A DNA stretch of 64,000 nt, taken from contig JBCLDE010000003.1 in the NCBI GenBank assembly GCA_038915165.1, positions 12,008 through 76,007 on the forward strand, written 5' to 3'. Source of the stretch: Candidatus Limnocylindrales bacterium (GTDB lineage Bacteria > Chloroflexota > Limnocylindria > Limnocylindrales > CSP1-4). Position 1 is the first letter of the stretch. Every line of letters begins with the position of its first letter. This document shows positions 2,117 through 64,000 of the stretch, one piece after another. The position numbers were made by a program, and so were the translations under genes. Below the pieces are notes generated by a model, which did no database searches, was not told where the DNA came from, and worked only from the letters and a program-made list of their open reading frames with translations.

Positions 2117-2309
2117 TCGCCCCTCCCATCACCATCGTCGCGATAGTACCAACCGGCTTCGACGATCGAGAGCCGGTGGGGATGGGACTCAAGGTCCGTC
2201 GGTTGCTGGCGCGTGAGAGCGTCCTGTCCTGCCTGAACCCCGCTGGCCTTCATGGAGGCCGCGTTCGACGAGCCCCATCAGGCTCCCTTGTCAGGAGCCT
2301 GCTCGTGAA

Positions 2310-3395
2310 TCACATCGAGCTCGTGAGATGGCGCTGGCGCAGCACGTCGACGAAGGCCAGGCTTCCGTCCGCGTCTCGGAAGCGCCAAAAGGTCCAGCCG
2401 TTGGTCGGTTGGAACTCGCGGCCTGGTGGCGCGCCCACGATCGACTTGCGTGCCATCGCCCCGGCCATCGAGATCGAGCCGTAGCTGGTGCCGCTCCACG
2501 TCACGGTGCCGTCTGTCTCTATGCGTGCGGTGAGCTGGTGGCCCTTGTACGTCGTCTCGATGTCGAGCGGCAGCGCGATCGTGCCCGACGCGATCAGATC
2601 CTTGAGGGTCACGTGGCGCCACGGCGTCTTGTCAGGGCCGGGGTCCTTGTCCCCCACGTCCTTGACGGCCGGCGGGACGGTGGCCGGCGGGCTGACCGGC
2701 GCCTTCGCGCCAACCGGGAGGGTCGGCGCCAACTTGAGGGTCCCGTAGTCCAGCGAGAGCGTGGCGCGTCCCAGACTCTGCCGAACCTCGGCCGTGGATA
2801 GCGCGGGAACCCGCTTGCGAACAAGGTTGACGAAGTCTGTCGGGGCATCAAGTCCGGCGAGATCCTGGACGACCTTCTTCACCTGCCGGTCGACGAAGTA
2901 GGCGCGCCACAGGTCATCGATCACCGTGCTCTGGAGCTGCGCCTTCGACAGGAGCCCGAGGGTCTCCGCGAGTCCGGGCTCGTCCGAAGCGACAACGACC
3001 CGCTTGAAGAGCTTCTGGTCGATGTGGACGGGGGCGTAGGCGTTGTAGATGCGGTACTCATTCCCGTCCGTGAGCACAATCCACTCGACGATGCCCGCTA
3101 CGCCGGCGTAGCCCATGATCTGATGAGCCGACTTGGACAGATTCTCCCCGAGCGCCTTCGCCTCGACGAGTAGGCGCAGCCCCCCGTTCACGAACAGGGC
3201 GTAGTCGACTGGGTTGTCAGCCTGCTTGAGCTTGTACTCGCAGCGCACTTCGTCGAGGTCTCCCACATCCCAGCCGAGGGCTCGCAACACCGGCTCGATC
3301 AGGGCGTGCTTGGTGTTCTCCTCGCCGATCGTCTGCCCCCCGAACTTCGCAATCCGAGCGCGCACGTTCGTGAGCGCCAGCGCCAGGTCGTTCAT
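2310..3395 (-). CDS. HsdR_N-type PD-(D/E)xK nuclease domain protein with DUF4357-like C-terminus, copy 1
   Basis: Mirror of 49002..50087, identical translation. The start is trimmed from the ORF-track 3596 to the RBS-supported ATG. Confidence 0.7.
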   Translation of the reverse strand: MNDLALALTNVRARIAKFGGQTIGEENTKHALIEPVLRALGWDVGDLDEVRCEYKLKQADNPVDYALFVNGGLRLLVEAKALGENLSKSAHQIMGYAGVAGIVEWIVLTDGNEYRIYNAYAPVHIDQKLFKRVVVASDEPGLAETLGLLSKAQLQSTVIDDLWRAYFVDRQVKKVVQDLAGLDAPTDFVNLVRKRVPALSTAEVRQSLGRATLSLDYGTLKLAPTLPVGAKAPVSPPATVPPAVKDVGDKDPGPDKTPWRHVTLKDLIASGTIALPLDIETTYKGHQLTARIETDGTVTWSGTSYGSISMAGAMARKSIVGAPPGREFQPTNGWTFWRFRDADGSLAFVDVLRQRHLTSSM

Positions 3396-3592
3396 CAGTG
3401 CGCGCACCTCCGTCGGGAGAGTGTACAAGCCGCGGTAGGCGCGGCGGCGGAAGCTGAGGGGGCAGGCTCCGCCCGGACACGACGTGGTCATCGTGCCGTC
3501 GATGGGGCCACACCAGGTGGCACGCGATGTCGCCCGTCGACCGGCGCGCGGACGCACCGGCGCGCGGACGCCGTGGTCCGGCCGCAGCCAAG

Positions 3593-4483
3593 TCAATCGA
3601 GGCAGACGACTCCGTCTTGGTTGACCGTGACCTGAAGGATCTCTTCCGCCGTCACCAGGCCCGCAAGGCGGGCGGTTCCCACCCTCAAGACGCCAGATCG
3701 CTCCCGATCGGGACCAAACCTTGGGTTGTACTGGACAACCATCTCCTCGCCGCGGAGGTCTATTCGAACTCGTCCGACCTGCTGAGGGAGGACCGACTTT
3801 GCGTCGCTGCTACTCCGCGCGGGTACTCGGATGCGCCCAGCGCGAAGGTCAGCATGGGTGACCCGCTGAGTCGGACCCACGGCCGACTGAGCGACCAAGG
3901 GCGGTGCCGGCGTCACGTCCGGGTCCTGGCGAGGCAATGGGTGCGGGTCGGCCCCGGGTGGGCCATGCTGCGTTCGTAGATCGCGGATGACGGCCAAGAG
4001 TCCGACGTCGATCGCCGCGGCGACTTGCCTGGGTGCATAGGGCGGTGACAGGAGGAACGTCGGGACGCCCTCGAAGTCGGGGCCGCGCCCTGATGCGATG
4101 CTCTTGCCAAGGAGCGCCTCCGCCGGGGGACGGAACGCAAAGAGAAGCAGGCCTGGTCGCCAGCCACGGACGTTGGCCACCAAGGCGGTTCGTCCGGTGG
4201 CGAGCTCTTCCGCTGAGAGCTGGTTCGCGGCGCCAGTCGGCCGTTTGACGAGATCGGTGAGGCCGTTGCCAGCCGCGACGAACTCGTCGTCCTCCCAGGT
4301 GCCGGAACCCTTGTTCAGAGCCTCAAGGCCACGAAGGCGGCCCCAGAGCCGCTTGCCAAGCCGACCCTGATAGTAGTGGCCAGCGGCGACGGACACCGGA
4401 GTCGGGTTGATGCCGACCAACAGGATGCCGCCTGGCTGACAAGGGCGGTCCGGAAGCGTGAGCCGGGATCCATTCGATTCCAT
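3593..4483 (-). CDS. MUG/UDG-superfamily glycosylase-like domain fused to an uncharacterised C-terminal domain, copy 1
   Basis: Mirror of 47914..48804, identical 296-aa translation. Confidence 0.65.
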   Translation of the reverse strand: MESNGSRLTLPDRPCQPGGILLVGINPTPVSVAAGHYYQGRLGKRLWGRLRGLEALNKGSGTWEDDEFVAAGNGLTDLVKRPTGAANQLSAEELATGRTALVANVRGWRPGLLLFAFRPPAEALLGKSIASGRGPDFEGVPTFLLSPPYAPRQVAAAIDVGLLAVIRDLRTQHGPPGADPHPLPRQDPDVTPAPPLVAQSAVGPTQRVTHADLRAGRIRVPARSSSDAKSVLPQQVGRVRIDLRGEEMVVQYNPRFGPDRERSGVLRVGTARLAGLVTAEEILQVTVNQDGVVCLD

Positions 4484-50280: not shown

Positions 50281-52722
50281 GTGCCACGCGGACGAACTGA
50301 GTTGACCCAAGCGAAGGCAAGGACTCGCCGACGGCGTTCGCCACGAGGTTCGGCCATCGCGCCTCTCGGAGTGATGGGACCCGACGGCCTCGCACGCTTG
50401 CGGGAGGCGATTCTCGAGCTAGACCCCGAGGGGCGGCACGTCCAGCTCGACGTCTCAACCGGCACCGTACGCTATGGCGACGAGATCATCCTGCACTCGG
50501 CCATCAGTACCTACGTGGGCGAGGAGGAACCGGCCCGCGCCTACCTCGTGGCTTGGCTGTGCACTAAGGGTGGGTACCTCCCCGCCAACATCGAACTCGA
50601 GAAGGCGTATTCCATCGGACGGCCGAAGCTCGGTGCTCGACTCGACATTCTTGTGAACTATCCGGATGGCACGCCATATGCGCTCATCGAAGTCAAGAGT
50701 CCGGTCGAGTTCGGAGTGGACCCGGACAGGTTCATCGAGGGCCAGCTGTTCAACATCGCGCCTCACGAGAAGGGCAGTCGCGTTCTCGCCTACACCACCG
50801 TGCGGGTCTCCGAGACTGCTAGCCCCGTTGTCCTAGCCATCGGCTTCACCGATGGAGACAAGTACTCGACTTGGGTCAGCAATGGAAGACCCGCGGCTGC
50901 CGAGTTCCCCGTCAGCTACGGAGATGCCACCCACGAGCACCTTGTCAACGGAGGAGGGGTTGACTTGCGGGTTGACGTTGGAGGCGCTGAGCTGGAGCGC
51001 CTCCGCAAGCGGCTGCATGACGTGCTTTGGAGGGGGTCGACGCCCGACAACGACATCTACGAGCATGTCGTCAAGCTGTTCCTCGCCAAGATCTACGACG
51101 AGAAGACGACCAATGGCGGAGAACGCTACGAATTCCAGCGCTGCTACGTGGGTGTTCAGCCAGAGACTACTCTCCGCACGTTCCAGAGGATCAACGACCT
51201 CTACAAGCGCGGCTACGCGCGCTATCTCAATCCCGGCGAAGGTGGCGCGACAAGTGAGCTCGACGGAAGGAAGTTCAGTCCTGACCAAACTGCGTTCGTA
51301 GTCGAGCTTCTCCAGGGGATCTCGCTGACGTCAACTCGCGGTGGAGACGTACTTGGCGGCTTCTTTGAGGGGATCACCCGCGACGGCTTCAAGCAGTCGA
51401 AGGGGCTCTTCTTTACGCACGCCAACATCGCGGCGTTCGTGATCATGGCGCTCGAGCTAGATGAACTAGCCATCGAGAAGATCACGAGCAACGCGCACTA
51501 CGACGATCGATTCCCCTACATCATCGATCCGTCTTGCGGCTCCGGGACCTTCCTCCTATCGGCGATGCATCTCATCACCCAGCGGATCGAGGGCGAAAGA
51601 GCAGCGATCTCGCGCAACGAAGATGTGAGAGAGCTCTTGAGGGATAAGGCTCCCTCCGAACATGCCAATCGATGGGCAAAGGACTTCATCTTCGGGATCG
51701 ATGACTCGGAGTTGCTGTCAATGGCAACGAAAGTCAACATGGTCCTTCACCGCGATGGCAACACGCACGTGTACCAAGCTGACGGGCTTTCGGCGCTGGA
51801 CCGATTCCGGGACCAGCGTTTGAAAGGTCGCGACCCGGCTGACGCCGCCGTGTATTCGAAGAAGGTCGCTGTCGCCTTCGATGCCGTGGTGTCGAATCCT
51901 CCGTTCAGCATCACCCTTGTGCCTGCAACTGCTGCGACACTTGCCTCCACATTCGAGCTCGCTGCAAGCGCAAACTCGGAGAACTTGTTTCTCGAGAGGT
52001 GGTACCAGCTGCTGAAGCCGGGAGGCCGCCTTGGGGTGGTGCTCCCGGAGAGCTTCTTCGCGACGAAGGAGAATCTGAACGCTCGCTTGTTCCTCTTCAA
52101 CCACTTCAATGTGAGAGCTGTGGTCGGCCTCCCAAGGCTTGCCTTTGAGCCGTGGACGCCCACCAAGACTTCGCTCCTCTTTGCCCAGAAGAAGTCGGAT
52201 GCGGAGGAGCTGGCATGGAAGAACACTCGGATCAGGCACGAGCGAGAGATTGAGGTTGCCAAGGCCGCAGTGGCGAGCGCGACCCGACGGTTCGCCAGGG
52301 ACGCGACGGCGAGTCGCCCGATGGGGCCGAAGGAGGGGTCCGAGCTGATCGCGACGCTGCGGTCGTCCCTGTCTGGGCTCGATCTAGCTCCGCCCGACGA
52401 CACCGGGGAGCTTATGGCGAAGCTGCCGGCTCTAGCCAAGGTCAGCAAGGCTGTGAACACGACTGTGCTTGCAGTCCAGAGAACTGCGCGAGAGTTGGAC
52501 CTCGACTTCCTGGTAATCAGTGTCAGTATGATCGGCTACAAGCGGACGAAACGCACTGAGTACGACCGACCAAACGAGCTATTCCAGGCGATGGCGGGAC
52601 GGCGTCGTCGCCGGGCAAGAGTCCTGAACTTGAATAGGACGACGGCCGATTGGTCTATCGAGACGCCTCGCCGGGGCGCGGACGCGCTGAGTATCCTCCG
52701 ACGTTCACGAATCTGGCAATGA
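50281..52722 (+). CDS. PD-(D/E)xK (HsdR_N-like) + gamma-class N6-adenine DNA methyltransferase fusion (type IIB/BcgIA-like or type I HsdM-like), copy 2, complete
   Basis: 813 aa. N-terminus ..RLDILVNYPDGTPYALIEVKSP... HsdM-like helix bundle ..VVKLFLAKIYDEK... Motif I IIDPSCGSGTFLL and motif IV VVSNPPFS. The stop overlaps the S-subunit ATG. The start is uncertain (GTG 50281 or ATG 50374). Confidence 0.85.
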   Translation: MPRGRTELTQAKARTRRRRSPRGSAIAPLGVMGPDGLARLREAILELDPEGRHVQLDVSTGTVRYGDEIILHSAISTYVGEEEPARAYLVAWLCTKGGYLPANIELEKAYSIGRPKLGARLDILVNYPDGTPYALIEVKSPVEFGVDPDRFIEGQLFNIAPHEKGSRVLAYTTVRVSETASPVVLAIGFTDGDKYSTWVSNGRPAAAEFPVSYGDATHEHLVNGGGVDLRVDVGGAELERLRKRLHDVLWRGSTPDNDIYEHVVKLFLAKIYDEKTTNGGERYEFQRCYVGVQPETTLRTFQRINDLYKRGYARYLNPGEGGATSELDGRKFSPDQTAFVVELLQGISLTSTRGGDVLGGFFEGITRDGFKQSKGLFFTHANIAAFVIMALELDELAIEKITSNAHYDDRFPYIIDPSCGSGTFLLSAMHLITQRIEGERAAISRNEDVRELLRDKAPSEHANRWAKDFIFGIDDSELLSMATKVNMVLHRDGNTHVYQADGLSALDRFRDQRLKGRDPADAAVYSKKVAVAFDAVVSNPPFSITLVPATAATLASTFELAASANSENLFLERWYQLLKPGGRLGVVLPESFFATKENLNARLFLFNHFNVRAVVGLPRLAFEPWTPTKTSLLFAQKKSDAEELAWKNTRIRHEREIEVAKAAVASATRRFARDATASRPMGPKEGSELIATLRSSLSGLDLAPPDDTGELMAKLPALAKVSKAVNTTVLAVQRTARELDLDFLVISVSMIGYKRTKRTEYDRPNELFQAMAGRRRRRARVLNLNRTTADWSIETPRRGADALSILRRSRIWQ

Positions 52723-54278
52723 TCCGCTCGCAGCACGTGCGGCTTAGCACCGCCGTTGAGACGTCCGCCGCGCGGATCGATCCCCACTTCTTCACGCTCA
52801 TTCGGCAGATCGGCGGGATAGTCGATTCGCTTCGCTCCGGCATTCGTCTGATGTACCCCGCGACGACGGCGATCAGCAATGGGTTGAATCTCCCGGAGGA
52901 CGCCTACGATTACCTGACCACAACGCCGGATCTGCTCTACGTATCGGTCGGCGCGATCTCACAGTACGCGCTCAGACGAGACCGGGCGATAGCTATCAAA
53001 GATCCGCTTGAGTATGCGTACGCATCGGACCCAACGGCCGTCGCTTGCACGGCTGCAGAGATACTGGTGACTCGGTCAGGGACGCCTGGGATCGCGTGGC
53101 CAGCCGCAGAGATCGTCGAAACGGCGGATGCACCGAGGATCGTGCCGTCCGGGTTCGTTATCCGAGTCTCAATCGATCCACTTGTGGCTGACCCGTTCTT
53201 CGTCGCGGCGATCCTGAATCATCCCGTTTGGCGTACCTGGACGACCGCTCTCGCAACGGGCAAGAGCCAGCTCAATCTGTCGCAGGATCAGCTTGGCGAG
53301 GTCTTGATCCCAGCGGTCCCGCTGGAGCGGCAGTCAGAGATCGGGTCCGCCTACAGACGATTCCTGGGATCCATCTCTGCACTCCATGGCTCAGGTGCCG
53401 ACCTCGAAGGCTCTTGTGACGCGATCGTTTGTGAGGTGCTAGGCCGCGACCTTCCACGACTGGCGCGATCGAGCATGACAGTTGACCGCCTCAACCTGTC
53501 CGACGCTCTCTCCAGATCCTCCCAATTGAGAATCGACTGTCGCTTCCAGAGCGGAGAGGTGCGAGACATCCTTGCTCCGCTGCAATCTCTCGATGTCGTG
53601 GCTTTGCGCGACCTGGTGGCAGGGGATCCGGTCAAGGGACGACAGCCAACCATCCTCGACGAGACGGAGGCGGACGAGTTGTCGCCTCGCGTGGTGTCGA
53701 CTGCCGCCGTTCAGGCTGGAGTTGTCCGGCAGGAGCTGACAAAGCCGACGACCGAGGCGGAGGTTGCCCATGCCGGGGACCGCTTGATCCTGCCTGGTGA
53801 CCTATTGGTGACCATGGATGGGGAGGGGTCGATAGGCAAAGCAGCTGTCTTCGAGAGTGGCTACGAGGCGGTGCCTGACTCTCATGTGATAATTCTGCGG
53901 CTTCGTGACCCATCCACCGCACCCACCCTAGCCTGCATGATCAACAGCGGCCTCGGCCAGGCGCAAATCGATCTCTGCATCTCCGGGTCAACAGGACAGA
54001 CTCAACTTTCGAAGTCGGATCTCCTCGATCTCCGAGTTCCTGTGGCGATGCTGGATGACCCAGGGCTCGTGGCGCTCCGGTACACCGCCGTCACGGCGGC
54101 CTTCCAGGACGCATCCGATGCAATTCGGACGCTTCTGGTCGAGCAGGCGCAGCGGGTCTCCGAAGCCGTGGTTGCCAGTGGCGTACTTCCGGCCAACTGC
54201 GCCGCGGAACTTGAGGCAATGTCGCGCACGGAGAGTCTCGAGCTCCTCCTCGACGCGATCAGAGGGGCTGCTGCCTAA
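52719..54278 (+). CDS. Restriction-modification specificity (S) subunit with two target-recognition domains
   Basis: 519 aa from ATG 52719 (ATGA overlap with the methyltransferase stop). Two repeats of the conserved S-subunit junction are present: ..GKSQLNLSQDQLGEVLIPAVPLERQSEIGSAY.. and ..GSTGQTQLSKSDLLDLRVPVAML... Confidence 0.8.
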   Translation: MIRSQHVRLSTAVETSAARIDPHFFTLIRQIGGIVDSLRSGIRLMYPATTAISNGLNLPEDAYDYLTTTPDLLYVSVGAISQYALRRDRAIAIKDPLEYAYASDPTAVACTAAEILVTRSGTPGIAWPAAEIVETADAPRIVPSGFVIRVSIDPLVADPFFVAAILNHPVWRTWTTALATGKSQLNLSQDQLGEVLIPAVPLERQSEIGSAYRRFLGSISALHGSGADLEGSCDAIVCEVLGRDLPRLARSSMTVDRLNLSDALSRSSQLRIDCRFQSGEVRDILAPLQSLDVVALRDLVAGDPVKGRQPTILDETEADELSPRVVSTAAVQAGVVRQELTKPTTEAEVAHAGDRLILPGDLLVTMDGEGSIGKAAVFESGYEAVPDSHVIILRLRDPSTAPTLACMINSGLGQAQIDLCISGSTGQTQLSKSDLLDLRVPVAMLDDPGLVALRYTAVTAAFQDASDAIRTLLVEQAQRVSEAVVASGVLPANCAAELEAMSRTESLELLLDAIRGAAA

Positions 54279-54502
54279 CCGGCGATCCCGTCCGCCAGAT
54301 GCCGCGCGACGTCCTCGCCCAGCGACCACAGGGCGAGCAGGACGGCGAGGCCCGGGTCCGTCGAGACGCCGATCTCGGGTGTGCCGGCGAGGTCCGCCAC
54401 GGCCAGCCACGTCCTGTCGAACTGGCGCATCCGGACGTCGACCCAGAAGTCGAGCTCAGGGTCGGTAAGGCGTAACTCGGTAGGGAGGGAACGAAGCGAC
54501 AT
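54275..54502 (-). CDS. Hypothetical 75-aa protein
   Basis: MSLRSLPTELRLTDPELDFWVDVRMRQFDRTWLAVADLAGTPEIGVSTDPGLAVLLALWSLGEDVARHLADGIAG. Third codon positions are almost all G/C and the composition is not Arg/Pro-biased. No recognisable family. Confidence 0.45.
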   Translation of the reverse strand: MSLRSLPTELRLTDPELDFWVDVRMRQFDRTWLAVADLAGTPEIGVSTDPGLAVLLALWSLGEDVARHLADGIAG

Positions 54503-54869
54503 GACCGATTACCTGCCATTCGCCCGGTACACGGAAGCCGGCCGGACAATCCTGCCACGACCGCGACAGCGTGACGGGACCGCCCGCCACGGCTACGGGC
54601 TCGACGTCTTCGCCCAGTGCGGCTACACGTGCGTCTACTGCGGGCTGGACATGGCGGAGACCTTCGAGTCCTGGCTCCAGCTCTCGGTCGACCACGTCGT
54701 ACCGCACCAGATGGCGGACCACGGCTACGACCGCAAGTACGTGGAGAGCATCTCCAATCTCGTGACCTGCTGCCGCGCCTGCAACGACCTCGGCAACCGC
54801 TTCACCATCGACAATCCTCCGCCGACCACCGACGAGGCGTTCCTGGCACTCCGCGACGCCGTCATTTGA
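54501..54869 (+). CDS. HNH endonuclease (possibly truncated by a 1-nt frameshift at the stop)
   Basis: 122 aa from ATG 54501 (GGGAGGGAA upstream). ..CGYTCVYCGLD..LSVDHVVPH..LVTCCRACNDLGN... After TTT 54865..54867 the +1 frame continues as a plausible ..EKRRDLILRRRAEERAVYAKLIG... Confidence 0.8.
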   Translation: MTDYLPFARYTEAGRTILPRPRQRDGTARHGYGLDVFAQCGYTCVYCGLDMAETFESWLQLSVDHVVPHQMADHGYDRKYVESISNLVTCCRACNDLGNRFTIDNPPPTTDEAFLALRDAVI

Positions 54870-55503: not shown

Positions 55504-55751
55504 AGCAACGATCCTCCCACAACCGGCTGGCCGGCAGCGGCTGCGGATGCGCGGACTCAGCGCGACTGCCTGCGGCACACGTGCGGCTCCGTCGTAGGGC
55601 CCCTGTCAGGGCGTCATGCAGGCGGGACACGGCAGGTCGTCCGCCACGCTGGTGTCCACGACGACCTCGGACCAGAAGTGCATCTCGACAAGGAACTCGA
55701 CGTTGCACAAGGCAGCCGACCGTGAGGCCCGGCGCGTGGTCGGCGGGGCCG

Positions 55752-56330
55752 GACCTCGTCCGCGAGGCGGCCCTGGAAGCCGGCGGCTACTTCGACGTCC
55801 TCGTCGTGTGCGGCTTCGCCTTCGACGCCCGGGCCGACGAGGAGACCGGCAAGGCGATGCGCTTCGGCAAGCTGACCGTCCTGGCCGCGCGGATGAACCC
55901 CGACCTCGCGATGGCCGAGGAGCTGCTCAAGAAGACCCGGAGCGGCAACCTGTTCACCGTCTTCGGTCAGCCCGACATCGACATCCGCCCGGCCGGCGAC
56001 GGGGAGCTCCAGGTCGAGATCCACGGCCTCGACGTCTACGACCCGACGACCGGTGTCGTCCGCAGCGACTCGACCGACGACATCGCCTGCTGGTTCATCG
56101 ATACCGCCTACGACGACCAGCAGTTCTTCGTCCGCCACGCCTACTTCCTCGGCGCCGACGACCCCTACGACAAGCTCAAGCGCGCCCTCCGGGCCGACAT
56201 CGACGAGGCCGCCTGGGCCTCGCTCAACTCGACCGTCTCACGCCCGTTCCCGCGACCCGCCAGCGGCCAGATTGCCGTCAAGGTCATCAACCACTACGGC
56301 GACGAGATCCTCAAGGTATATGGGGTCTGA
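55752..56330 (+). pseudogene. C-terminal ~190 aa of a DNA methyltransferase-associated domain; catalytic N-terminus missing
   Basis: ..DLVREAALEAGGYFDVLVVCGFAFDARADEE..LAARMNPDLAMAEELLKKTRSGNLFTVFGQPDIDI..IACWFIDTAYDDQQFFVRHAYFLGADDPYDKLKRAL..IAVKVINHYGDEILKVYGV*. This matches, from memory, the tail of large adenine-specific DNA methylases. No MTase motifs lie upstream. Confidence 0.5.
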
Positions 56331-56413: not shown

Positions 56414-57556
56414 CTACGCGTCCCATGAGCAGCGCGGCGGCAGTGTGGGCCTCCTGGATGATGCCGCTCTCGTCGAGCAGGATGATGGCATCCCCTGCCG
56501 TTTCGAAGTCGGTCCGGTACTTGTCCTCGGATGCTTGTCGCTCGCGGCAGGAACGCCGCTCAGAGCCGGACCGAAGAACTCGGCCATCCGTCGCTCGTAC
56601 TCGTCCGGATGGAGGGTGAGGGCCTGAGTGTGCCCGGCGCCCTCGACCCGCCATGCCTCGACCGAGCCGCCGGCCGCGCGGACGCCGGCCACGAGCGTGT
56701 CGAGATAGCGCGGGCTGAGCCGTTCGTCCGCGGAACCCATCGTGAGGAAGATCGGGCGGCCGTTCAGCTTCGCGGTGGCCTCGAGCGGACTGCGCGCCGC
56801 GATGTCGTCGCCGACGAGGACCCTGCCTACGAGGATCCCGCCCTCAGCGAGGAACGTCGGGTATCCGGTCCGGATCAACTCGTCGCGGATGGACTCTCGG
56901 ATGTCGGCGAAGCTGCTGTCCGCCCAGACCGCCGCGATCCCCTGCTCTTCACCAACGGCGATCATCACCACCGCCGCGCCGAGCGAGAAACCGAGGACGC
57001 CGATCCGCGCCGCCGGCACGCCCTGGGCGCGCAGCCAGTCGAACGCGCCGAGGACGTCGAGATACTCGTCGGTCCCGCCGGCGAAGCGGCCGTCCTCGAT
57101 CGTCGAATCGCCGTGGTCCCGCAGGTCGATCAGGAGCACCGAGATGCCATGCCGGTGGAGCATCCCGGCCGCGAGCAGGTTCGTACCGCTCCGGCGGCAG
57201 CCGTCGAGCCCGTGGACGAGGATCACCGTCGGGGCATCGGGGCTGGCGGCGCGAACCCACCACGCGGCAATCGCGATGTCCGGGTCGCCGCGCGCGGGGA
57301 AGGTTGCCGTCTGCGGCGCGGGCATCCGGTAGGGAACGGTATCGATGCCCTCGACGGCGAACGACGTCGGATCGTTGGCGGCGGTCCCGGGGCACTCGGC
57401 GTCGGCACGCGACAGCTGGTCGTAGACGTACGCGCTCGCCCCGAAGTAGCCGACCGCGGCCACGACGATGACGCCCACGATCGGCGCGAGGAGTCGGCGC
57501 CGGCGACCGGGAGGCCTGTCCCGCGTCCACGCCCTTGTCGGGTGGTCCCGATTCAT
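56414..57556 (-). CDS. Membrane-anchored alpha/beta hydrolase (C-terminus probably fused to neighbouring remnant sequence)
   Basis: ATG 57556. TM anchor ..LLAPIVGVIVVAAVGYFGA... ..VILVHGLDG.., nucleophile elbow ..GFSLGA.., ..GAGHTQ... The last ~45 aa (..SDKHPRTSTGPTSKRQG..) look non-native. Confidence 0.75.
   Translation of the reverse strand: MNRDHPTRAWTRDRPPGRRRRLLAPIVGVIVVAAVGYFGASAYVYDQLSRADAECPGTAANDPTSFAVEGIDTVPYRMPAPQTATFPARGDPDIAIAAWWVRAASPDAPTVILVHGLDGCRRSGTNLLAAGMLHRHGISVLLIDLRDHGDSTIEDGRFAGGTDEYLDVLGAFDWLRAQGVPAARIGVLGFSLGAAVVMIAVGEEQGIAAVWADSSFADIRESIRDELIRTGYPTFLAEGGILVGRVLVGDDIAARSPLEATAKLNGRPIFLTMGSADERLSPRYLDTLVAGVRAAGGSVEAWRVEGAGHTQALTLHPDEYERRMAEFFGPALSGVPAASDKHPRTSTGPTSKRQGMPSSCSTRAASSRRPTLPPRCSWDA
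56415..56543 (-). pseudogene. PAS-domain N-terminal fragment
   Basis: ..RERQASEDKYRTDFETAGDAIILLDESGIIQEAHTAAALLMGRV.. is typical of a PAS start. It breaks off after about 40 aa. Confidence 0.4.
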
Positions 57557-58159
57557 GCCATCACGGTGGTCCCGTTTTCGGTTGACCTTCGCACGACGGT
57601 CCAGGTCGGGGGGCACGCGGACCGGCAAGCTCGGCGCAGACGAGACGTGCGAGCATCCCAGACACAATGGCCATCCCGGAGCTGATTGTGCGCGCGATCA
57701 CGATCGTGGTGCTAGCCGCGGCGGTCGTCCTTGCCTATCTCTACGTTACCCAGTCTCGACGAGGGCCGATGATCCGATGATCGACACGATCTGGTGATAG
57801 TGACGGTGCCGTAGCCTGGCGAGACGGGGCACATTGCGGTTGGCGCGAGGCCGGACGCCACGGTCATCGCAAAGGAGATGACGCCCCGCTGTGAACGTGC
57901 CGACGGTTCGTTTGGGTCACGCGTAAGCCGGAGATAACGTGCCAGAGGTAGAGTCTCCCTGGCTCCCGCTCCGTGGTCTCGCGACGATCCCGGCTGACGG
58001 GCTGGCCAGTTCGATGGGGCGCGTCGGGAGTCACTCTTCGGCCTCCTGCGCGGGCGGCAGTCTGTGGCCGGGACGCCGGTCCGCCGCCCGACCTTTGTCG
58101 AGCGACAGCTCGTCGCAGCCGGCCCGGTCGGATTAAGGTCGCTGCTCGACTACGGACTG

Positions 58160-59785
58160 TCATCGACCCGCCACCTGTTCGTCATCTGCCCCTTGCTCCG
58201 AGGAGCGCACCTCCTGATCCGCCCGGGGCTGGTCCGCGATCGGCCGCGCAATCATGAACTCGGGTGGTTGGCAGGGCCCCGCGGCTCCCGGAAGCCCCCG
58301 GGTTCCCCAGAACTGGGCGACTCGTGACGTCCATGCCGCGCGGGACGAGGCGCCGAGGAGCACGCGATCAACGTCAAGGCTTGCATTTCCCTTCCTGTTG
58401 CCGAGTGGCCAGGCGGGGCTCGAACCGTAGCCGAGCGCGATTCGGGCGATGATCGCGCGGCGTAGCAGGTCGCGCCATCGATCGAGTGCGAGAAGGAATT
58501 GCTCGCCTTTCCACTCCGTGGCGTCACTGCCGGTTACCGCAGCGATCTTCTCGTCGATCTTCTCCCTCGACATCGTCGCGCCGTGGACGAAGGTGGACCG
58601 CAGCTCATACAGGATCTTCACGTCCTCGTAGATGGCTTCCGGCGGATCCTGCTCAGTGCCGAGCAGGTGAGCGGCGCGCGACCGCAGCCGAAGGGCGATA
58701 TCGTTCCGCGCGGTCCCTGCTAGGGCAGCCTCGAGCCCGACCGCAAGATCGACCGCTTGATCCACGAGCGACTGCATCGTCCCATCAAGTGAGCGCCCGA
58801 GGCGACCGAGGGCAATGGTGAGCGGCGAGTCCCATCGGCCCGGCGTCACCAGCTCATCGAGAAGCGCGACGAGGGACTCGATGCCGGGCACGACGACTTC
58901 GTCGAGCGTCACCGGTCTGTGAACGAAGCGGAAGCCCCAGTGCGGAAGCCTGGTGACGTTTGGGGGATGTGCATGAACCAGGCCAGGCTGTCCGGCGATG
59001 TCGACGAGAGCGTGGAGAGTCGACGCGGTCGCGAGTCGAATCGCCGATGTGACCAGCCAGACCCTGCGACGTGCGTGGTGCTGGAGTTCCTCGTACTTCG
59101 CCCGCCCGATCTCCTCGGCCAGCAGGAGCGCGGTCGGACCGGGCCAGGCGAAAGCGTCGGACCGAGCGATGTCGAATCCGGCCGACGGAACCTCACGCTC
59201 GACGAAGCGCTCGGCCTGATTGCCGACGCGAATGACCTTGACGCCGGCGATAGTCAGCTCTTCACCGAAGCGGTCGCCGTGACCCTCGCCCGCCTCGTGG
59301 GCGACGTCGATGTCCGACACGATCTGAACCACCTTCGCGCGGGGAAGTGCCTGGACGGTAAGCACCAGTTCGGCGACGCACTTCTGGACTGACGGGCTCT
59401 TCGGGTCGTACGCCTCGCCTGCTCTCGTGGCGGCAGCTACAGCCGCCTCGAGGAGGGCGGTCGGATAGGACCAGGGCAAGTCGATCCCGCTGTTGCGGTG
59501 TAGGTCGAAGCGGTCAGGAAGCGCCTCGGCCAGTCTCTTCGCCAGAGTCCCCTCGCTTCCCTCGATCGCCCAGCCCTCGTAGTCGGTCCCGACGCGAATC
59601 CAGCGCTCGTATCGCGACCTGGGCAGGACTCGCTCCTGCCTCAGAATGGCGAAGGAGCGAGCGAGCGCGGCCTCCGCAGCCGCCCGAATTGCCGCCTCAT
59701 CCGCCGGCGTCAGCGGGAACGGCGTTGCGATCGGATCGGTCACCTCGATCCCCTCGTTGGCTTCGGATTCGCTCGACCTTGTCAT
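58160..59785 (-). CDS. HEPN-like (Rx4H) domain protein, 541 aa, large uncharacterised N-terminal region
   Basis: C-terminal module ..AVDLAVGLEAALAG..ALRLRSRAAHLLG..IYEDVKILYELRSTFVHG.. with RSTFVH = Rx4H. Paralogous to the C-terminus of 62912..64000. Confidence 0.6.
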   Translation of the reverse strand: MTRSSESEANEGIEVTDPIATPFPLTPADEAAIRAAAEAALARSFAILRQERVLPRSRYERWIRVGTDYEGWAIEGSEGTLAKRLAEALPDRFDLHRNSGIDLPWSYPTALLEAAVAAATRAGEAYDPKSPSVQKCVAELVLTVQALPRAKVVQIVSDIDVAHEAGEGHGDRFGEELTIAGVKVIRVGNQAERFVEREVPSAGFDIARSDAFAWPGPTALLLAEEIGRAKYEELQHHARRRVWLVTSAIRLATASTLHALVDIAGQPGLVHAHPPNVTRLPHWGFRFVHRPVTLDEVVVPGIESLVALLDELVTPGRWDSPLTIALGRLGRSLDGTMQSLVDQAVDLAVGLEAALAGTARNDIALRLRSRAAHLLGTEQDPPEAIYEDVKILYELRSTFVHGATMSREKIDEKIAAVTGSDATEWKGEQFLLALDRWRDLLRRAIIARIALGYGSSPAWPLGNRKGNASLDVDRVLLGASSRAAWTSRVAQFWGTRGLPGAAGPCQPPEFMIARPIADQPRADQEVRSSEQGADDEQVAGR

Positions 59786-60101
59786 CGTCGAATGCTACCG
59801 GTCGCAGGGCTCTCGTCCACAGCCGTCCCTCCCCTCTCCACGGTCATCAACTCCTCGCTCGGACCGACGTCGACCCGCCCGTGCGAGGCGTGGGATGTTG
59901 GGTCCTCCCTGCAGGTCGGGCCCCCGTGCGCACATGACCGGCGAGGCGGCTGGTCGGGTGCCGTCGCGATACCGACACGGGGGTTCACACTCCCTCCACC
60001 ATCGCCCGATCGTGTCGTGTTCGGATAGCGTGTTCGTCGCAAGGCCCTCGACTCGGCGGACTCGACAAACGTCCGGGACCCGCCTTCTGAGCGTCGCACG
60101 C

Positions 60102-61940
60102 TCAGCGTCTGCTTGCCACGCTCCACAGTCTATCCGCCACGCTGAGGTAGTCGTCCGACCACGACAGCGCCTCGTTCTCCTCGGCCGATAGTGGGTTGCC
60201 CAGTTCCTGCCAGGCCCCCGCCAGTCGTTCCGCAATCACCGCCGCCTGACCGCCCGGCTCGGCCAGCAGGTACGTGGGAATCCCGCGCTGGCGGGCGATG
60301 TGCCACTCTTCATCGACCCCGGGCGAATGGCCGCCTCCCTCGCTGGTCCGGCCGCCGACGATCACCGCGAGGTCGGCTCGGCTTGGCTGGATCATCGCCT
60401 CCCTCATCGCGGTGAGAGAGGCTACAAGCGTGTCGCCCCTTGGCACCTCGACGACGGTCGCCTGCGCCGCCAGGGAGACGACGAACGCAGGCGTCGTGAA
60501 CCAGGCCGACTGGTAGATGGTGAGCCGCTTAGCACCGTCCTCACCGACAGTTGCCCTGGCGACCTCGAGCAGAAGTGGCGTGAAGGTGGGATGGCCGCCG
60601 AAGATGATGGCTCCGCCGAGCTCGAGCCAGCGACGGCAGACCGAGTTGACCGCAGCGATCACGCGGGGGTGGGTCCGAGGATCTGCAGGAAAGGCGCCGA
60701 GGAGAAGCAGACTCGGTCGCTCGGCGACGCTCTCTGGACTGGCTTCCGCTCTGGTCAGGTTGCCGACGTACCGCTCCGCGGATTCGACGAGCGACCACTC
60801 GTTCAGGGGCTGTGCGCGAGCCACGCCGGGCCGAAGCAGGAGCGACGCATCGAATCCTCGGCAGCCCGTCGCGTGCTCAAGATAGCCGTTGGCGCCCAGC
60901 CACCCCCTGAGCTGCTCCCAGTCCTCGGACGCTGGGCAGCGCCCGTACAGCTGCACGATATGCACCCGTCGTCGGTTGGGGTATGGGCCAATCCCATCAT
61001 CGAGCGAGACCGCGTAGATCAGCTGTCGCTGGTCCAGCGCCTGCACCTCCGCCCCGGCCGCGTCCGCCCAGCTTTTGAGACGCTCGAAGGCATGGGTGGT
61101 CGCCGAGACATGGAGCCGGACTTCGTCGAGGGCAGCATCGAGCACGTCGCGGGCGAGGTCGCCTGCCGCACCCGGGGTCCCGGCCATCAGCTGAGGCCCT
61201 CCTGCAGGGCAGACGGCCAGAGGGACGCGCCCGTCGGCCGGCCCGACCCGGATCCACACGATGGGAATATTCTGGCCCAGGGCGACGCTCAGCTCCTTCG
61301 CGATCCAGTCGGACTCCCCCGCGCGTAACGTGTCGATGAAGACGAGGACATCGGCGGTCGTGAGCTTGGCCTCGATGACGTCTTGCGCTGGGTCGCCGAC
61401 CTGGATGTCGATGAGGTCCCTGAACACGTGCTCGTGATGCACGCTGAGCTCACGATCCAGATCTGCCGCCTCGACTTCACCGTCCGCGCGCCGATATGTG
61501 ATGAACAGACGCAGGCGGTCCTTGTAGAACGTGGGCGCCACCCGAGCGAGGGCTGCGTGCGCGAACCACCGCGCCGCGATGTCGAGGCGAGTCGGGGCGT
61601 GTCCCGAGCGCCGAAGTTGTTCGGTGACGTCGAAGCTCTGGGCAGCCCCGATAGACGTCGGAGGCGCCCGGTGATCAGCGTCAAGGGCGACCGGCAGCAG
61701 CACCGCGCCAGCCGTTGCCGCCTGCTCGAGGAAGGCGTCGACATCGGGGTCCAGCGGGCCGGCGCCGATCACCAGAGCGACGCCGTCCGCCGGCCCGACG
61801 GTGCGGCCCGTTGCGGCCGCCGGGCTCGCAATCCAGGAAGTCGGGTGGAATTCGCGGAGGCGCCGGTCCGACCGCTCGAGGAACTCGCGAGCGACCGGGC
61901 CGTCCGCTCCCGTCAGGCGGGGGTCCACCAGGTACAGCAT
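60102..61940 (-). CDS. TIR-SLOG protein (ThsA-like sensor/effector lacking SIR2)
   Basis: 612 aa; GGAGA 8 nt upstream of the ATG. Central TIR ..RLFITYRRADGEVEAADLDRELS..VFRDLIDIQVGD..ADVLVFIDT..ESDWIAKELSVAL..IPIVWIRV... C-terminal SLOG-like Rossmann module ..SLLLLGAF..GGAIIFGGHPTFTP..LTIYQS..DLAVIVGGRTSEGGGHSPGVDEEWHIARQRGIPTYLLAEPGGQAAVIA... No SIR2 GAGxS motif was found. Confidence 0.7.
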   Translation of the reverse strand: MLYLVDPRLTGADGPVAREFLERSDRRLREFHPTSWIASPAAATGRTVGPADGVALVIGAGPLDPDVDAFLEQAATAGAVLLPVALDADHRAPPTSIGAAQSFDVTEQLRRSGHAPTRLDIAARWFAHAALARVAPTFYKDRLRLFITYRRADGEVEAADLDRELSVHHEHVFRDLIDIQVGDPAQDVIEAKLTTADVLVFIDTLRAGESDWIAKELSVALGQNIPIVWIRVGPADGRVPLAVCPAGGPQLMAGTPGAAGDLARDVLDAALDEVRLHVSATTHAFERLKSWADAAGAEVQALDQRQLIYAVSLDDGIGPYPNRRRVHIVQLYGRCPASEDWEQLRGWLGANGYLEHATGCRGFDASLLLRPGVARAQPLNEWSLVESAERYVGNLTRAEASPESVAERPSLLLLGAFPADPRTHPRVIAAVNSVCRRWLELGGAIIFGGHPTFTPLLLEVARATVGEDGAKRLTIYQSAWFTTPAFVVSLAAQATVVEVPRGDTLVASLTAMREAMIQPSRADLAVIVGGRTSEGGGHSPGVDEEWHIARQRGIPTYLLAEPGGQAAVIAERLAGAWQELGNPLSAEENEALSWSDDYLSVADRLWSVASRR

Positions 61941-61967
61941 CGCCCCGTCTCCGCCGACTCGTCCAGG

Positions 61968-62417
61968 CTACTTGCCCACCTTCTTAGCCGCCTTCTCGAC
62001 CCAGTCGCCGAAGTTGTTGTAGCCGTTATCGCTCACCCAATCGTAGACCGGGTACGTGCTCGGCAGGGGGTTTGGGCCGTCAGTGTCCGTGTTGCCAACC
62101 TGATCCTTGATCCGGTGAATGCGGACGCCTAGGAGCCCGTTTCCGCGGGCGATGCTCTGGGTGATCTCGTACTGAACGTACTCGCGGCGGGCTGTCTGTG
62201 CCCCGATCAGCACCGCCGTGACAGTGGTGCCTACGAGGGCACCGTCGATCATCCTCTCGATGGCTTGCTGACCCTTCTTCTTGGCCTCTTCCCAGATGCC
62301 CGCGTCGAAGAAGCCGGCGGCCTCGCGATCCGCCTTCGTCACCCAGCTGTTGCGCACGACGCTGGCCCGCCACACGTCGCGCTCGTAGTGGAAGCTGAAG
62401 AACACCCGTCTGGCCAT
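61968..62417 (-). CDS. thsB: ThsB-like TIR-domain protein (DUF1863-type)
   Basis: 149 aa from ATG 62417 (GGAGG 6 nt upstream; ORF-track start 62540 adds an Arg-rich leader). MARRVFFSFHYERDVWRASVVRNSWVTK..AGFFDAGIWEEAKKK..VTAVLIGAQTARREYVQYEITQSI..GPNPLP..YPVYDWVSDNGYNNFGDWV closely parallels my recollection of Bacillus cereus ThsB. The stop lies 27 nt before the TIR-SLOG start. Confidence 0.8.
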   Translation of the reverse strand: MARRVFFSFHYERDVWRASVVRNSWVTKADREAAGFFDAGIWEEAKKKGQQAIERMIDGALVGTTVTAVLIGAQTARREYVQYEITQSIARGNGLLGVRIHRIKDQVGNTDTDGPNPLPSTYPVYDWVSDNGYNNFGDWVEKAAKKVGK

Positions 62418-62911
62418 GACCTGCCTCCGTCCTCTGCGGCTCGGCGTCTGCCGCTTGCCGCTCGTCGCCCTGACCGTCTTGCGGACGTTGACCTTGGTCC
62501 GGTTGCCAACCGTTGCGCTTCGGGCACGGGCACGCTTCACGGGCTCGCGTATGCCTGATACCTCAAGAATCCGGTGCCAGAGTCGATTTAGCAGGCTCCG
62601 GAATGACGCGCTCGTCGGTTGCTCTCAGTCTGCGAGTAGTCCATCTACTGTAGACCATCGAGCCGCGTGTGACCTAGCTCCACCCGCGCGGGGCGCTCGA
62701 TCGCGGCTCAGGGTCATCCAGCGGAGCACCCCCCGGTGTCACCGAGAGGCAATCGTGGCGCTCTGCGCTGTGTTCGCTGCGTAGGCCACCTCAGCGGGGG
62801 CTTGGGCGTGGGTCGCCGCGGGCGCGCCGGGGGGTGCCGGGACGAACACGATCTTGCCATCGTGGCGTTCGTCGGGTTCGTCGTCTGGGGGCCAGCTGCG
62901 TCCCGCACGCG

Positions 62912-64000
62912 TTACTCGCGCGCCGCGCCTGGTGCGGCGAAGATCGATTCATCCCAATCGAAGAATGGGCTCTTGCTGCGGTTTGCCGCCGAGAGGGCGA
63001 GAGCTTGTTGGATTGCGCGACGCATGTCCCCTTCGATCGCCGAGGTGAACTCGTCGAGTGTCACAGGCTTGTGCTCGCTACTTCCCCAGGTTTCCGGCGT
63101 TGGGGTCCCACCATGGACGATGGCGCTCCGCGTGTCGTAGGCCCTGCGCATTCGCTTTGCGAGGGTCATCCGCTCGCTTGTCGTGCTGCCAAGCAGGTGG
63201 GCCGCGTGGAGTGCCAGTCGGAACCGCAGTTCCCCTCCGTGGTCCGTCATGTGCCCAAGGAATAGAGACTCGGCCGCGATCATGAGGTCGAGGAGGCGGT
63301 CGTCGGCTCGGTGACGCTCACTGGCAAAGGAGAAGCGGCGAGCCGCGTTCTCGACGTATGGGCGCCGTTGGACCCCACGCGACGCCAGGGCGGACGCCAG
63401 CGTCTCGATTCCAGGACGGTCCGCCTCGGTCACTTCATAGGTGCTGAAGCCGATGTAGCCCGGTGCGAGGAATCCTGACGTGGTGGATTGTCCAGGGCCG
63501 AGATCCACGGTGAACGACATGTAGCCGACTCCAGCGATTGCCCCGGCTCTGTGCACACGAAGCGCGACCAATCCGCGCTCGAGTTCAGCCGATGCGCGCT
63601 CGTAGTACCTACTGGGTTGCGTGCCACCCTGGAGACGCTCGAACGCCGCTGCCCCTACGACCTTCGGCAGCCTCTGACGGACGCGGATGCCCCATACGGC
63701 CGGTTCATTCTGGAAGATGGCCAGCGTTCCGATGCCTCGGACCACGCCGACGCTCAGTGATCGCGCGATCTCGGCATCGGTCAGCCGGTCAACCTCGGTC
63801 ACATCGCTCAGGACGAAGGGCGCATCGGCGGTTCCAGCGAACCCCGCCAATGGCATCAATGTGACTTGCTCCACGGTCTCGGCCGCGAACACAGCCATGA
63901 CCTCGCCAAGACGCTCATCGAACAAGTCGGCCCGGAAGTCGAACGGGCTGTGAGAATCGGAGGCGGCGGCGATCAGACTCCAAAGGAACTGCGAGATCTG
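62912..64000 (-). CDS. HEPN-like (Rx4H) domain protein; 5' end outside the window
   Basis: The track gives 337 aa from TTG 63925, but the frame stays open to nt 64000 (..QISQFLWSLIAAASDSHSPFDFRADLFDERLG..). C-terminal module ..LDLMIAAESLFLG..ELRFRLALHAAHLLG..MRRAYDTRSAIVHGG.. with RSAIVH = Rx4H. Confidence 0.6.
   Translation of the reverse strand, partial: QISQFLWSLIAAASDSHSPFDFRADLFDERLGEVMAVFAAETVEQVTLMPLAGFAGTADAPFVLSDVTEVDRLTDAEIARSLSVGVVRGIGTLAIFQNEPAVWGIRVRQRLPKVVGAAAFERLQGGTQPSRYYERASAELERGLVALRVHRAGAIAGVGYMSFTVDLGPGQSTTSGFLAPGYIGFSTYEVTEADRPGIETLASALASRGVQRRPYVENAARRFSFASERHRADDRLLDLMIAAESLFLGHMTDHGGELRFRLALHAAHLLGSTTSERMTLAKRMRRAYDTRSAIVHGGTPTPETWGSSEHKPVTLDEFTSAIEGDMRRAIQQALALSAANRSKSPFFDWDESIFAAPGAARE

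Follow-up and report, generated by a model that had tools for sequence, protein, structure and literature searches.

The 64,000-nucleotide stretch of DNA analyzed here from a Candidatus Limnocylindrales bacterium (assembly GCA_038915165.1, contig JBCLDE010000003.1, positions 12,008 to 76,007; hereafter the window) ends in four adjacent minus-strand genes, in which a ThsB-type TIR gene and a gene for a TIR-SLOG fusion protein stand between two genes for HEPN-like proteins, designated A and B. We conclude, with a probability of roughly 60%, that this end of the window is a patch of a defense island holding three probably independent modules, namely A, B, and the ThsB and TIR-SLOG pair, and the apparent bracketing of the TIR pair by HEPN genes is best explained as a chance adjacency of independent modules. 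A first-pass annotation had described A and B as paralogues and had left two options for them, independent abortive-infection genes in a defense island, or components of a single larger system in which they would serve as accessory effectors or as sensors.

Gene A (58160..59785, minus strand; 541 aa, P0075) and the TIR-SLOG gene (60102..61940, minus strand; 612 aa), both as placed by the open reading frame (ORF) map, are separated by a gap of 316 bp (59786..60101). Only 27 bp (61941-61967) lie between TIR-SLOG and the ThsB-type gene (61968..62417, minus strand), which encodes 149 aa when translated from the ATG at 62417, and a further 494 bp (62418..62911) separate the latter from gene B (62912..>64000, minus strand), which is truncated by the window end. 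The ThsB ORF as a whole spans 61968..62540 on the minus strand, with a longer start at a GTG at 62540; the start at 62417 is supported by the same 149-aa length in the called ThsB genes of three homologous loci, and with this start the strands, coordinates and gaps of the first-pass map are exact. That B runs past the window edge also held, as its frame is open to base 64000; the full-length product (P0001), taken from a 76,410-bp contig, has 444 aa, of which the first 107 lie beyond the window. Scans for promoter and terminator consensus sequences, Rfam families, repeats and tandem repeats between 57.6 and 64 kb gave nothing bearing on operon structure. A less GC-rich stretch (62560-62700, GC 0.61) lies just upstream of ThsB, inside the 494-bp gap.

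The probable independence of the three modules was assessed through genomic linkage. We examined 94 loci carrying A- or B-family genes (2 by exact look-up, 12 genome loci for the A family and 80 metagenome loci for the B family), in which all six-frame ORFs were searched with hidden Markov models (HMMs) of both families and, by phmmer, with the TIR-SLOG and ThsB proteins of the window. None of the 94 loci contained a detectable relative of either TIR protein, a result that is tempered by two features of the comparison: divergent TIR genes would escape single-sequence phmmer searches that start from the proteins of the window, and the flanks are short, about half of the loci having less than 1.5 kb on a given side and 27 having at least 1.5 kb on both. 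In the reciprocal comparison, none of the seven TIR-SLOG loci for which DNA was at hand carried a relative of A or B as judged by the family HMMs (E<=1). Clustering of all neighbors within 4 kb of A- and B-family genes at the 94 loci likewise yielded no recurrent partner, near-duplicate contigs aside.

The nearest relative of B, a 92% identical protein from GCA_038914675.1, provides the most direct test. When its 21-kb locus was compared by blastn with the whole window, only positions 64000-62846 matched, and the similarity ended 65 bp past the B stop codon, which indicates that B travels without ThsB, TIR-SLOG and A. Directly after this relative of B, where the window has ThsB, stands the IstB gene of an IS21 insertion sequence (IS) element (L002:11381-12133), and an IS-mediated rearrangement may explain the differing neighbors of B. 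Spacing points in the same direction, with 27 bp inside the TIR pair versus 494 and 316 bp from the pair to B and A, respectively. Taken together, these results fit the option of independent abortive-infection genes and speak against that of accessory effectors or sensors, as relatives of the HEPN genes were not found together with relatives of the window's TIR-SLOG or ThsB at any of the 94 and 7 loci and synteny broke shortly after B.

The two TIR genes, by contrast with this lack of linkage, form what is, judging from sequence, a conserved two-gene Thoeris-like unit. The identities given to them by the first-pass annotation were borne out: ThsB matched PF08937 (ThsB_TIR, 3.6e-22) as well as the PADLOC models ThsB1 (1.3e-61) and PDC-M50B (1.3e-57), while TIR-SLOG carries the Pfam domains TIR_2 (residues 146-233) and SLOG cluster 3 (LD_cluster3, residues 443-580), an architecture that is constant among its 104 homologues. 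A ThsB_TIR gene stood directly upstream of TIR-SLOG in seven of eight homologous loci, ending 3-13 bp before it in six of the eight, with a distance of 27 bp given for one. The outer flanks of these eight loci vary and include restriction-modification (RM) genes, BREX PglZ/BrxL, JetD, GmrSD, integrases and a 950-aa TIR protein. The copy number of ThsB was also seen to vary (L110-L116 and a contig of JGI 3300056388), some loci having a single or a double copy upstream and others a copy on either side of TIR-SLOG; one TIR-SLOG locus has a CAP12-PCTIR TIR gene in the place of ThsB, and at L111 the additional 950-aa TIR protein lies directly downstream of TIR-SLOG. The TIR-SLOG coding sequence of the window contains, in its 5' part, an imperfect 32-nt tandem repeat (61847-61909, 1.9 copies, 81% match), which is probably insignificant.

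With a ThsB-family TIR gene immediately upstream of the gene for a SLOG-domain protein, the pair has the arrangement of a Thoeris pair. It differs from type I Thoeris (SIR2-SLOG ThsA plus ThsB) in that SLOG is here fused to TIR, which replaces SIR2. It has the appearance of a modular, multi-TIR relative of type III Thoeris, which comprises several TIR proteins and a SLOG effector and whose signalling is uncharacterised (bioRxiv 10.64898/2025.12.03.692087); the 184-position ThcA model suggests a free-standing SLOG in type III, whereas the SLOG here is part of a TIR fusion. Scores of TIR-SLOG against the NCBIfam type III models were below threshold (ThcA, 66.2 bits against a cut-off of 110; ThcB4, 60.2 bits against a cut-off of 220), and a match to the curated type III equivalogs was thus not reached. 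In the literature that we found, no HEPN gene is a component of any described Thoeris type. By analogy with Thoeris, infection would be detected by the ThsB-type TIR protein, which would produce a signal derived from ADP-ribose. Binding of that signal to the SLOG domain of TIR-SLOG would then switch on the fused TIR domain, the presumed effector part and probably an NADase.

A and B share a C-terminal module in which three motifs recur in the same order, as had been noted from the sequence. In B these are AAESLFLG, LRFRLALHAAHLLG and YDTRSAIVHG, and in A they are GLEAALAG, LRLRSRAAHLLG and YELRSTFVHG. BLASTP aligned the two proteins over ~91 aa at 27% identity (E=5e-6), spanning all three motifs, and hhalign comparison of the family alignments (43 sequences per family, ~25-55% identity) gave a probability of 98.9 and E=1.9e-17, with the C-terminal parts alone giving a score of 102 and E=1.6e-16. 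Profile similarity is no longer detectable N-terminal of about residue 216 in B and residue 236 in A; the stretch upstream of the shared module scored 30.0, where shuffles gave 13.4 +/- 2.7 and 23.5 at most. The first ~200 residues of A and B are unalignable, in keeping with the earlier remark that the N-terminal regions differ, and their predicted secondary-structure order is alike. The term "paralogous" therefore holds for homology and fails for a local duplication: the two proteins are 27% identical over 91 aa only, and they belong to separate large families with different nearest relatives. Their sequences indicate that A and B are distant homologues with a common C-terminal half, representing two old, separate families and no recent duplication.

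The A family comprised 75 homologues of ~500-520 aa; the closest relatives of A are ~55% identical and metagenomic, two of them named by NCBI as metagenome-assembled genomes of Chloroflexota or Dehalococcoidia. Among cluster representatives (clustered at 50% identity), the B-family profile matched 12,157 at E<=1e-3, a number that fell to 1,182 at E<=1e-30; almost all matches were ~450-470 aa in length. An 861-aa protein (P0257) resembled a B-like protein joined to a penicillin amidase domain; since the two matches overlap in their ranges, we rejected a true fusion in favor of a probably chimeric or mis-called gene. Among the 94 loci there was one other case of paired family members, L071 (756-3765 of WNGD01036842.1), where a divergent member of the HEPN family (756-2156) and a B-like gene (2278-3765) stand in tandem on a 4-kb contig from which a TIR gene is absent.

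HEPN domains are characterized by an Rx4-6H motif where helix 3 ends and an Ex3[KR] motif in helix 2 (Anantharaman et al., PMC3710099). AlphaFold2 (AF2) models were obtained for A (pLDDT 88.4), in which an N-terminal alpha/beta region is followed by a helical HEPN-like module at the C-terminus, and for full-length B (pLDDT 86.8), and in both models the HEPN module contains four consecutive helices. The module of A (58421..58825, minus strand; residues ~321-455) has predicted helices at residues 321-334, 340-355, 364-375, 382-400 and 426-453 and contains E352, D362-x3-R366 and R396-x4-H401, the last encoded as RSTFVH at 58583..58600 (minus strand) according to the translation and invariant in the family alignment. 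In B the module (62939..63361, minus strand; residues ~296-436) has predicted helices at 314-330, 340-352, 356-377 and 397-421 and contains E326, E339-x3-R343 and R373-x4-H378, the last encoded as RSAIVH at 63113..63130 (minus strand), again by translation and again invariant. Invariant columns across the 43 sequences of each alignment were E352, R370, R396 and H401 in the A family and D316, D320, E326, E339, R343, R373 and H378 in the B family.

In the models the Arg of Rx4H falls at the end of helices 382-400 (A) and 356-377 (B), with the His as the first loop residue, and the E/Dx3R motif falls at the start of the helix preceding the catalytic helix. E339-x3-R343 is invariant in the B family, and D362-x3-R366 of A is found at the aligned position; an invariant Glu (E326 in B and E352 in A) lies in the preceding helix. 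The modeled placement of the two motifs corresponds to the helix 3 and helix 2 positions described by Anantharaman et al. (PMC3710099) and thus suggests a HEPN-like module.

The closest likeness was to the HEPN domain of ApeA. Full reference sequences came from Escherichia coli genomes, which were found via the cloned DNA in the supplement of the ApeA preprint, and the ApeA HEPN alignment comprised nine sequences, with six divergent plasmid homologues added by tblastn; viral contigs offered near-identical copies only, or no further homologues. The validated genes are located at L095:2605-4356 (Ec2ApeA) and L096:2651-4456 (Ec1ApeA), and that of Ec2ApeA sits within the tail/baseplate block of a P2-like prophage and is labeled merely "hypothetical protein" in RefSeq. 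The Rx4H of B aligned with R502...H507 of Ec2ApeA, R502 being the catalytic residue that was mutated in the solved structure (bioRxiv 10.64898/2026.01.26.701840), so that the catalytic stretch RRIYRTRNLIVH of Ec2ApeA lies against LYELRSTFVH in A and RRAYDTRSAIVH in B. In B, DRLLDLMIAAESLF aligned with the first helix of the ApeA HEPN domain (ExxxxxxWxALESL). When C-terminal modules were compared with the ApeA HEPN alignment by hhalign, A gave a single block, the catalytic one (28.3), and B gave two that are collinear (31.1 and 22.3), against a null of 11.9 +/- 2.0 with a maximum of 19.8 (19.7 for B) in 150 column shuffles of the ApeA profile. A plain HMM of the ApeA HEPN domain matched (E<=1) 56 of 74 B-family and 30 of 75 A-family proteins; the negative controls, 104 TIR-SLOG proteins, gave no match.

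Several results weigh against a HEPN assignment. The hhalign blocks, with P values of 4.8e-4 and 0.013 for B and 0.0018 for A, have low hhalign probabilities (3-32%), and the column-shuffle null that their scores far exceed is lenient. Pfam, PADLOC and NCBIfam returned nothing, even at E<=10, for A, B, 86 family members and the isolated C-terminal modules. Searches of PDB sequences with single proteins and with profiles gave chance matches only, and the family profiles failed to retrieve the ApeA chains (9hx*) in the PDB sequence set at E<=10. Foldseek searches with the full-length models found no match at E<=0.001 (A and B against PDB, B against BFVD), and the HEPN toxins 8xdj, 8yuf and 8xeh, which were the top small-domain matches for the B model, were weak and not significant (E ~3-6, TMt ~0.25-0.34). 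The N-terminal regions of A and B scored 16.5 and 14.0 against the ApeA N-terminal and Mid regions, which is no better than the shuffle null of 12.6 +/- 2.5.

Some of these negatives carry little weight. Ec1ApeA and Ec2ApeA, both experimentally validated, themselves have no Pfam-A match at E<=0.01, which makes the silence of Pfam on A and B uninformative and indicates that the Pfam "Apea-like HEPN" model fails to cover validated ApeA. The absence of an ApeA match in Foldseek was not weighed against HEPN, since the presence of 9hx* in the copy searched is uncertain. JGI labels four homologues "Apea-like HEPN", a label that could not be reproduced in the family-library scans. The comparison with HEPN families thus came out mixed, with profile similarity to ApeA HEPN above shuffles on one side and the lack of a significant library or Foldseek match on the other. 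Even so, the invariant Rx4H at a modeled helix end, the E/Dx3R in the preceding helix and the profile similarity to ApeA uphold the first-pass reading of the module as one with a HEPN signature; on the sequences and models together, a HEPN fold for the shared module is supported, short of proof, and A and B very probably belong to the HEPN superfamily, with their clearest likeness to the HEPN domain of ApeA.

Encoded by one gene, ApeA cleaves tRNA anticodon loops when activated by its ligands, 5'-phosphorylated deoxydinucleotides, which occupy a pocket remote from the active site, and its structures (Ec1ApeA and Ec2ApeA, PDB 9HXB-9HXN) are mostly alpha-helical with a catenin-like N-domain (bioRxiv 10.64898/2026.01.26.701840). 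Like ApeA, A and B are single polypeptides of ~450-600 aa with a predicted C-terminal HEPN domain after a region of ~300 aa taken to be non-catalytic; they share with it the first-helix block (R/F)xxxxAxx...(W/I)xA(L/A)ES(L) and the catalytic-helix block R-x-Y-x-x-R-(N/S)-x-I-V-H, and they too occur without a conserved partner gene and in variable or mobile regions. They differ in that ApeA has ~110 residues between the two HEPN motif blocks, compared with ~45 in A and B, and in that the N-domain of ApeA is helical whereas the N-terminal and middle regions of A and B are mixed alpha/beta in the models. Full-length hhalign of the A and B families against ApeA gave a probability of 4-7%, and A and B had no match in PADLOC at E<=1, hence no ApeA call, where the presence of an ApeA model in the copy used, though expected, is an assumption. 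As far as sequence comparison goes, A and B appear to lie outside the ApeA family proper, and a ligand pocket, a doughnut-shaped oligomer or a tRNA target like those of ApeA would be extended to them by analogy. Minimal HEPN toxins (HepT of HepT-MntA, or HEPN-MNT; 7AE8, 5YEP, 8XDJ, 8YUF) have the four-helix core, with Rx4H ending helix 3, that is predicted for A and B, but the latter two proteins exceed them three- to fourfold in size, have an extra N-terminal region, and lack an adjoining MNT-type antitoxin gene or any other conserved neighbor. DARNA (PD-T7-3) was considered as the closest relative and rejected, its HEPN domain being N-terminal.

By analogy with these characterized systems, we infer the RNase activity, substrate, trigger and defense role of A and B, as well as the signalling chemistry of the TIR pair. 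Each of A and B would be a single-gene candidate abortive-infection nuclease, in which the N-terminal and middle region (~300 aa, mixed alpha/beta, with no detectable relative) is the presumed sensor or regulatory part, and in which the Rx4H and E/Dx3R residues of the predicted C-terminal four-helix HEPN domain would form a metal-independent RNase site, presumably composite across a dimer as in other HEPN proteins. As with ApeA, the protein would become active in response to some cue of infection, and the activated enzyme would cut cellular RNA, possibly tRNA anticodon loops, and so halt growth before phage release.

A role of A and B outside phage defense is unlikely, and was considered in light of their genomic setting. 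Under this alternative the proteins would have a HEPN fold and adjoin defense genes only because the region is variable, acting as toxins of unrecognised toxin-antitoxin pairs, as RNA-processing or stress nucleases, or as non-catalytic nucleotide-binding proteins. It draws on the absence of any match of A or B to a defense-system model, on the very large size and uniform length of the families, as for a broadly useful function, on the essential absence of both families from sequenced plasmids, and on the many housekeeping genes around A-family genes in 12 long loci. In the 11 A-family and one B-family neighborhoods, defense-type genes were mixed with housekeeping genes, which counts against a defense role; these neighborhoods are compatible with variable-region cargo. 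Against this alternative, some relatives lie in prophage-like regions or beside defense-type genes (type ISP/IIG RM, HerA, C5 methylase, PD-T4-6-like and PDC-S19), the window itself has RM-like genes and a Thoeris-like pair, and the IS element that parts B from its neighbors in the closest relative implies that B behaves as mobile cargo. Furthermore, the strictly conserved catalytic-type R, H and E residues argue, at the sequence level, for an active nuclease, and the 94 loci revealed no conserved small neighbor fit to be an antitoxin.

It is quite improbable that the shared module is not HEPN at all, but another helical fold with a chance RxxxxH string in proteins that are not nucleases. In favor of this alternative are the low hhalign probabilities against ApeA and the failure of structure and family-library searches to give a significant match with a HEPN entry. 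However, the R, the H and the upstream acidic/basic pair are the most conserved positions and fall at the HEPN helix 3 and helix 2 sites, two collinear blocks match ApeA HEPN far above shuffles, the ApeA-HEPN HMM discriminates against the 104 negative controls, the best small-domain Foldseek matches for B, weak as they are, are HEPN toxins, and some members have been named "HEPN domain-containing" or "Apea-like HEPN" by independent annotators.

A single four-gene system, in which A and/or B would serve the Thoeris-like pair as additional effectors or as sensors, perhaps as ligand-gated HEPN RNases triggered by the ThsB nucleotide signal as ApeA is by deoxydinucleotides, would account for the co-directional, adjacent genes, for the absence of a terminator-like site from both long gaps in the consensus scan, and for the activation of ApeA-type HEPN proteins by small nucleotide ligands in a distant pocket, but is highly improbable given the lack of linkage in either direction, the nearest relative of B without the TIR pair, the long outer gaps, and a TIR-SLOG protein that already has its own effector-type domain and conserved partner. 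The more specific idea that in this organism A and/or B, as ligand-gated HEPN RNases, answer the ADP-ribose-derived signal of the neighboring ThsB, such that one sensor feeds an NADase and RNases in a cross-talk with ApeA-like proteins that otherwise stand alone, is very unlikely.

Other features of the region surround these modules. An RM-like block on the plus strand (50281-54869) encodes an 813-aa N6_Mtase/Eco57I-type protein, an overlapping 542-aa ORF without a Pfam match, which may be a specificity subunit, and an HNH nuclease of 162 aa; it coincides with a dip in GC content to ~0.58-0.62, against ~0.68 around it, which suggests a separately acquired segment of the island. Between this block and gene A lie a 249-aa ORF without a family match (55581-56330, plus strand) and a 417-aa alpha/beta hydrolase of the Peptidase_S9/Abhydrolase type (56414-57667, minus strand). 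At five other loci (L001, L018, L020, L037 and L079), a gene with HTH_3 and Peptidase_M78 domains (ImmA/IrrE-like), ~41% identical between loci, is found within 4 kb of B-family genes and non-adjacent to them, and its recurrence hints at a prophage or mobile-element context.

The reading of the four genes as three independent modules would, if true, add nothing new in principle, as unrelated systems commonly stand side by side in defense islands and nucleases of the single-gene HEPN kind are well known as effectors of abortive infection. The TIR pair would add a well-conserved Thoeris-like architecture, below the type III cut-offs, in which TIR replaces SIR2 as the presumed effector. The A and B families would constitute a sizeable candidate pool of HEPN defense proteins, hosted mostly by soil Chloroflexota, Actinomycetota and related uncultured lineages, for which there is neither a Pfam, PADLOC or NCBIfam model nor a solved relative of the N-terminal half, and whose sensor region may recognize a new trigger.

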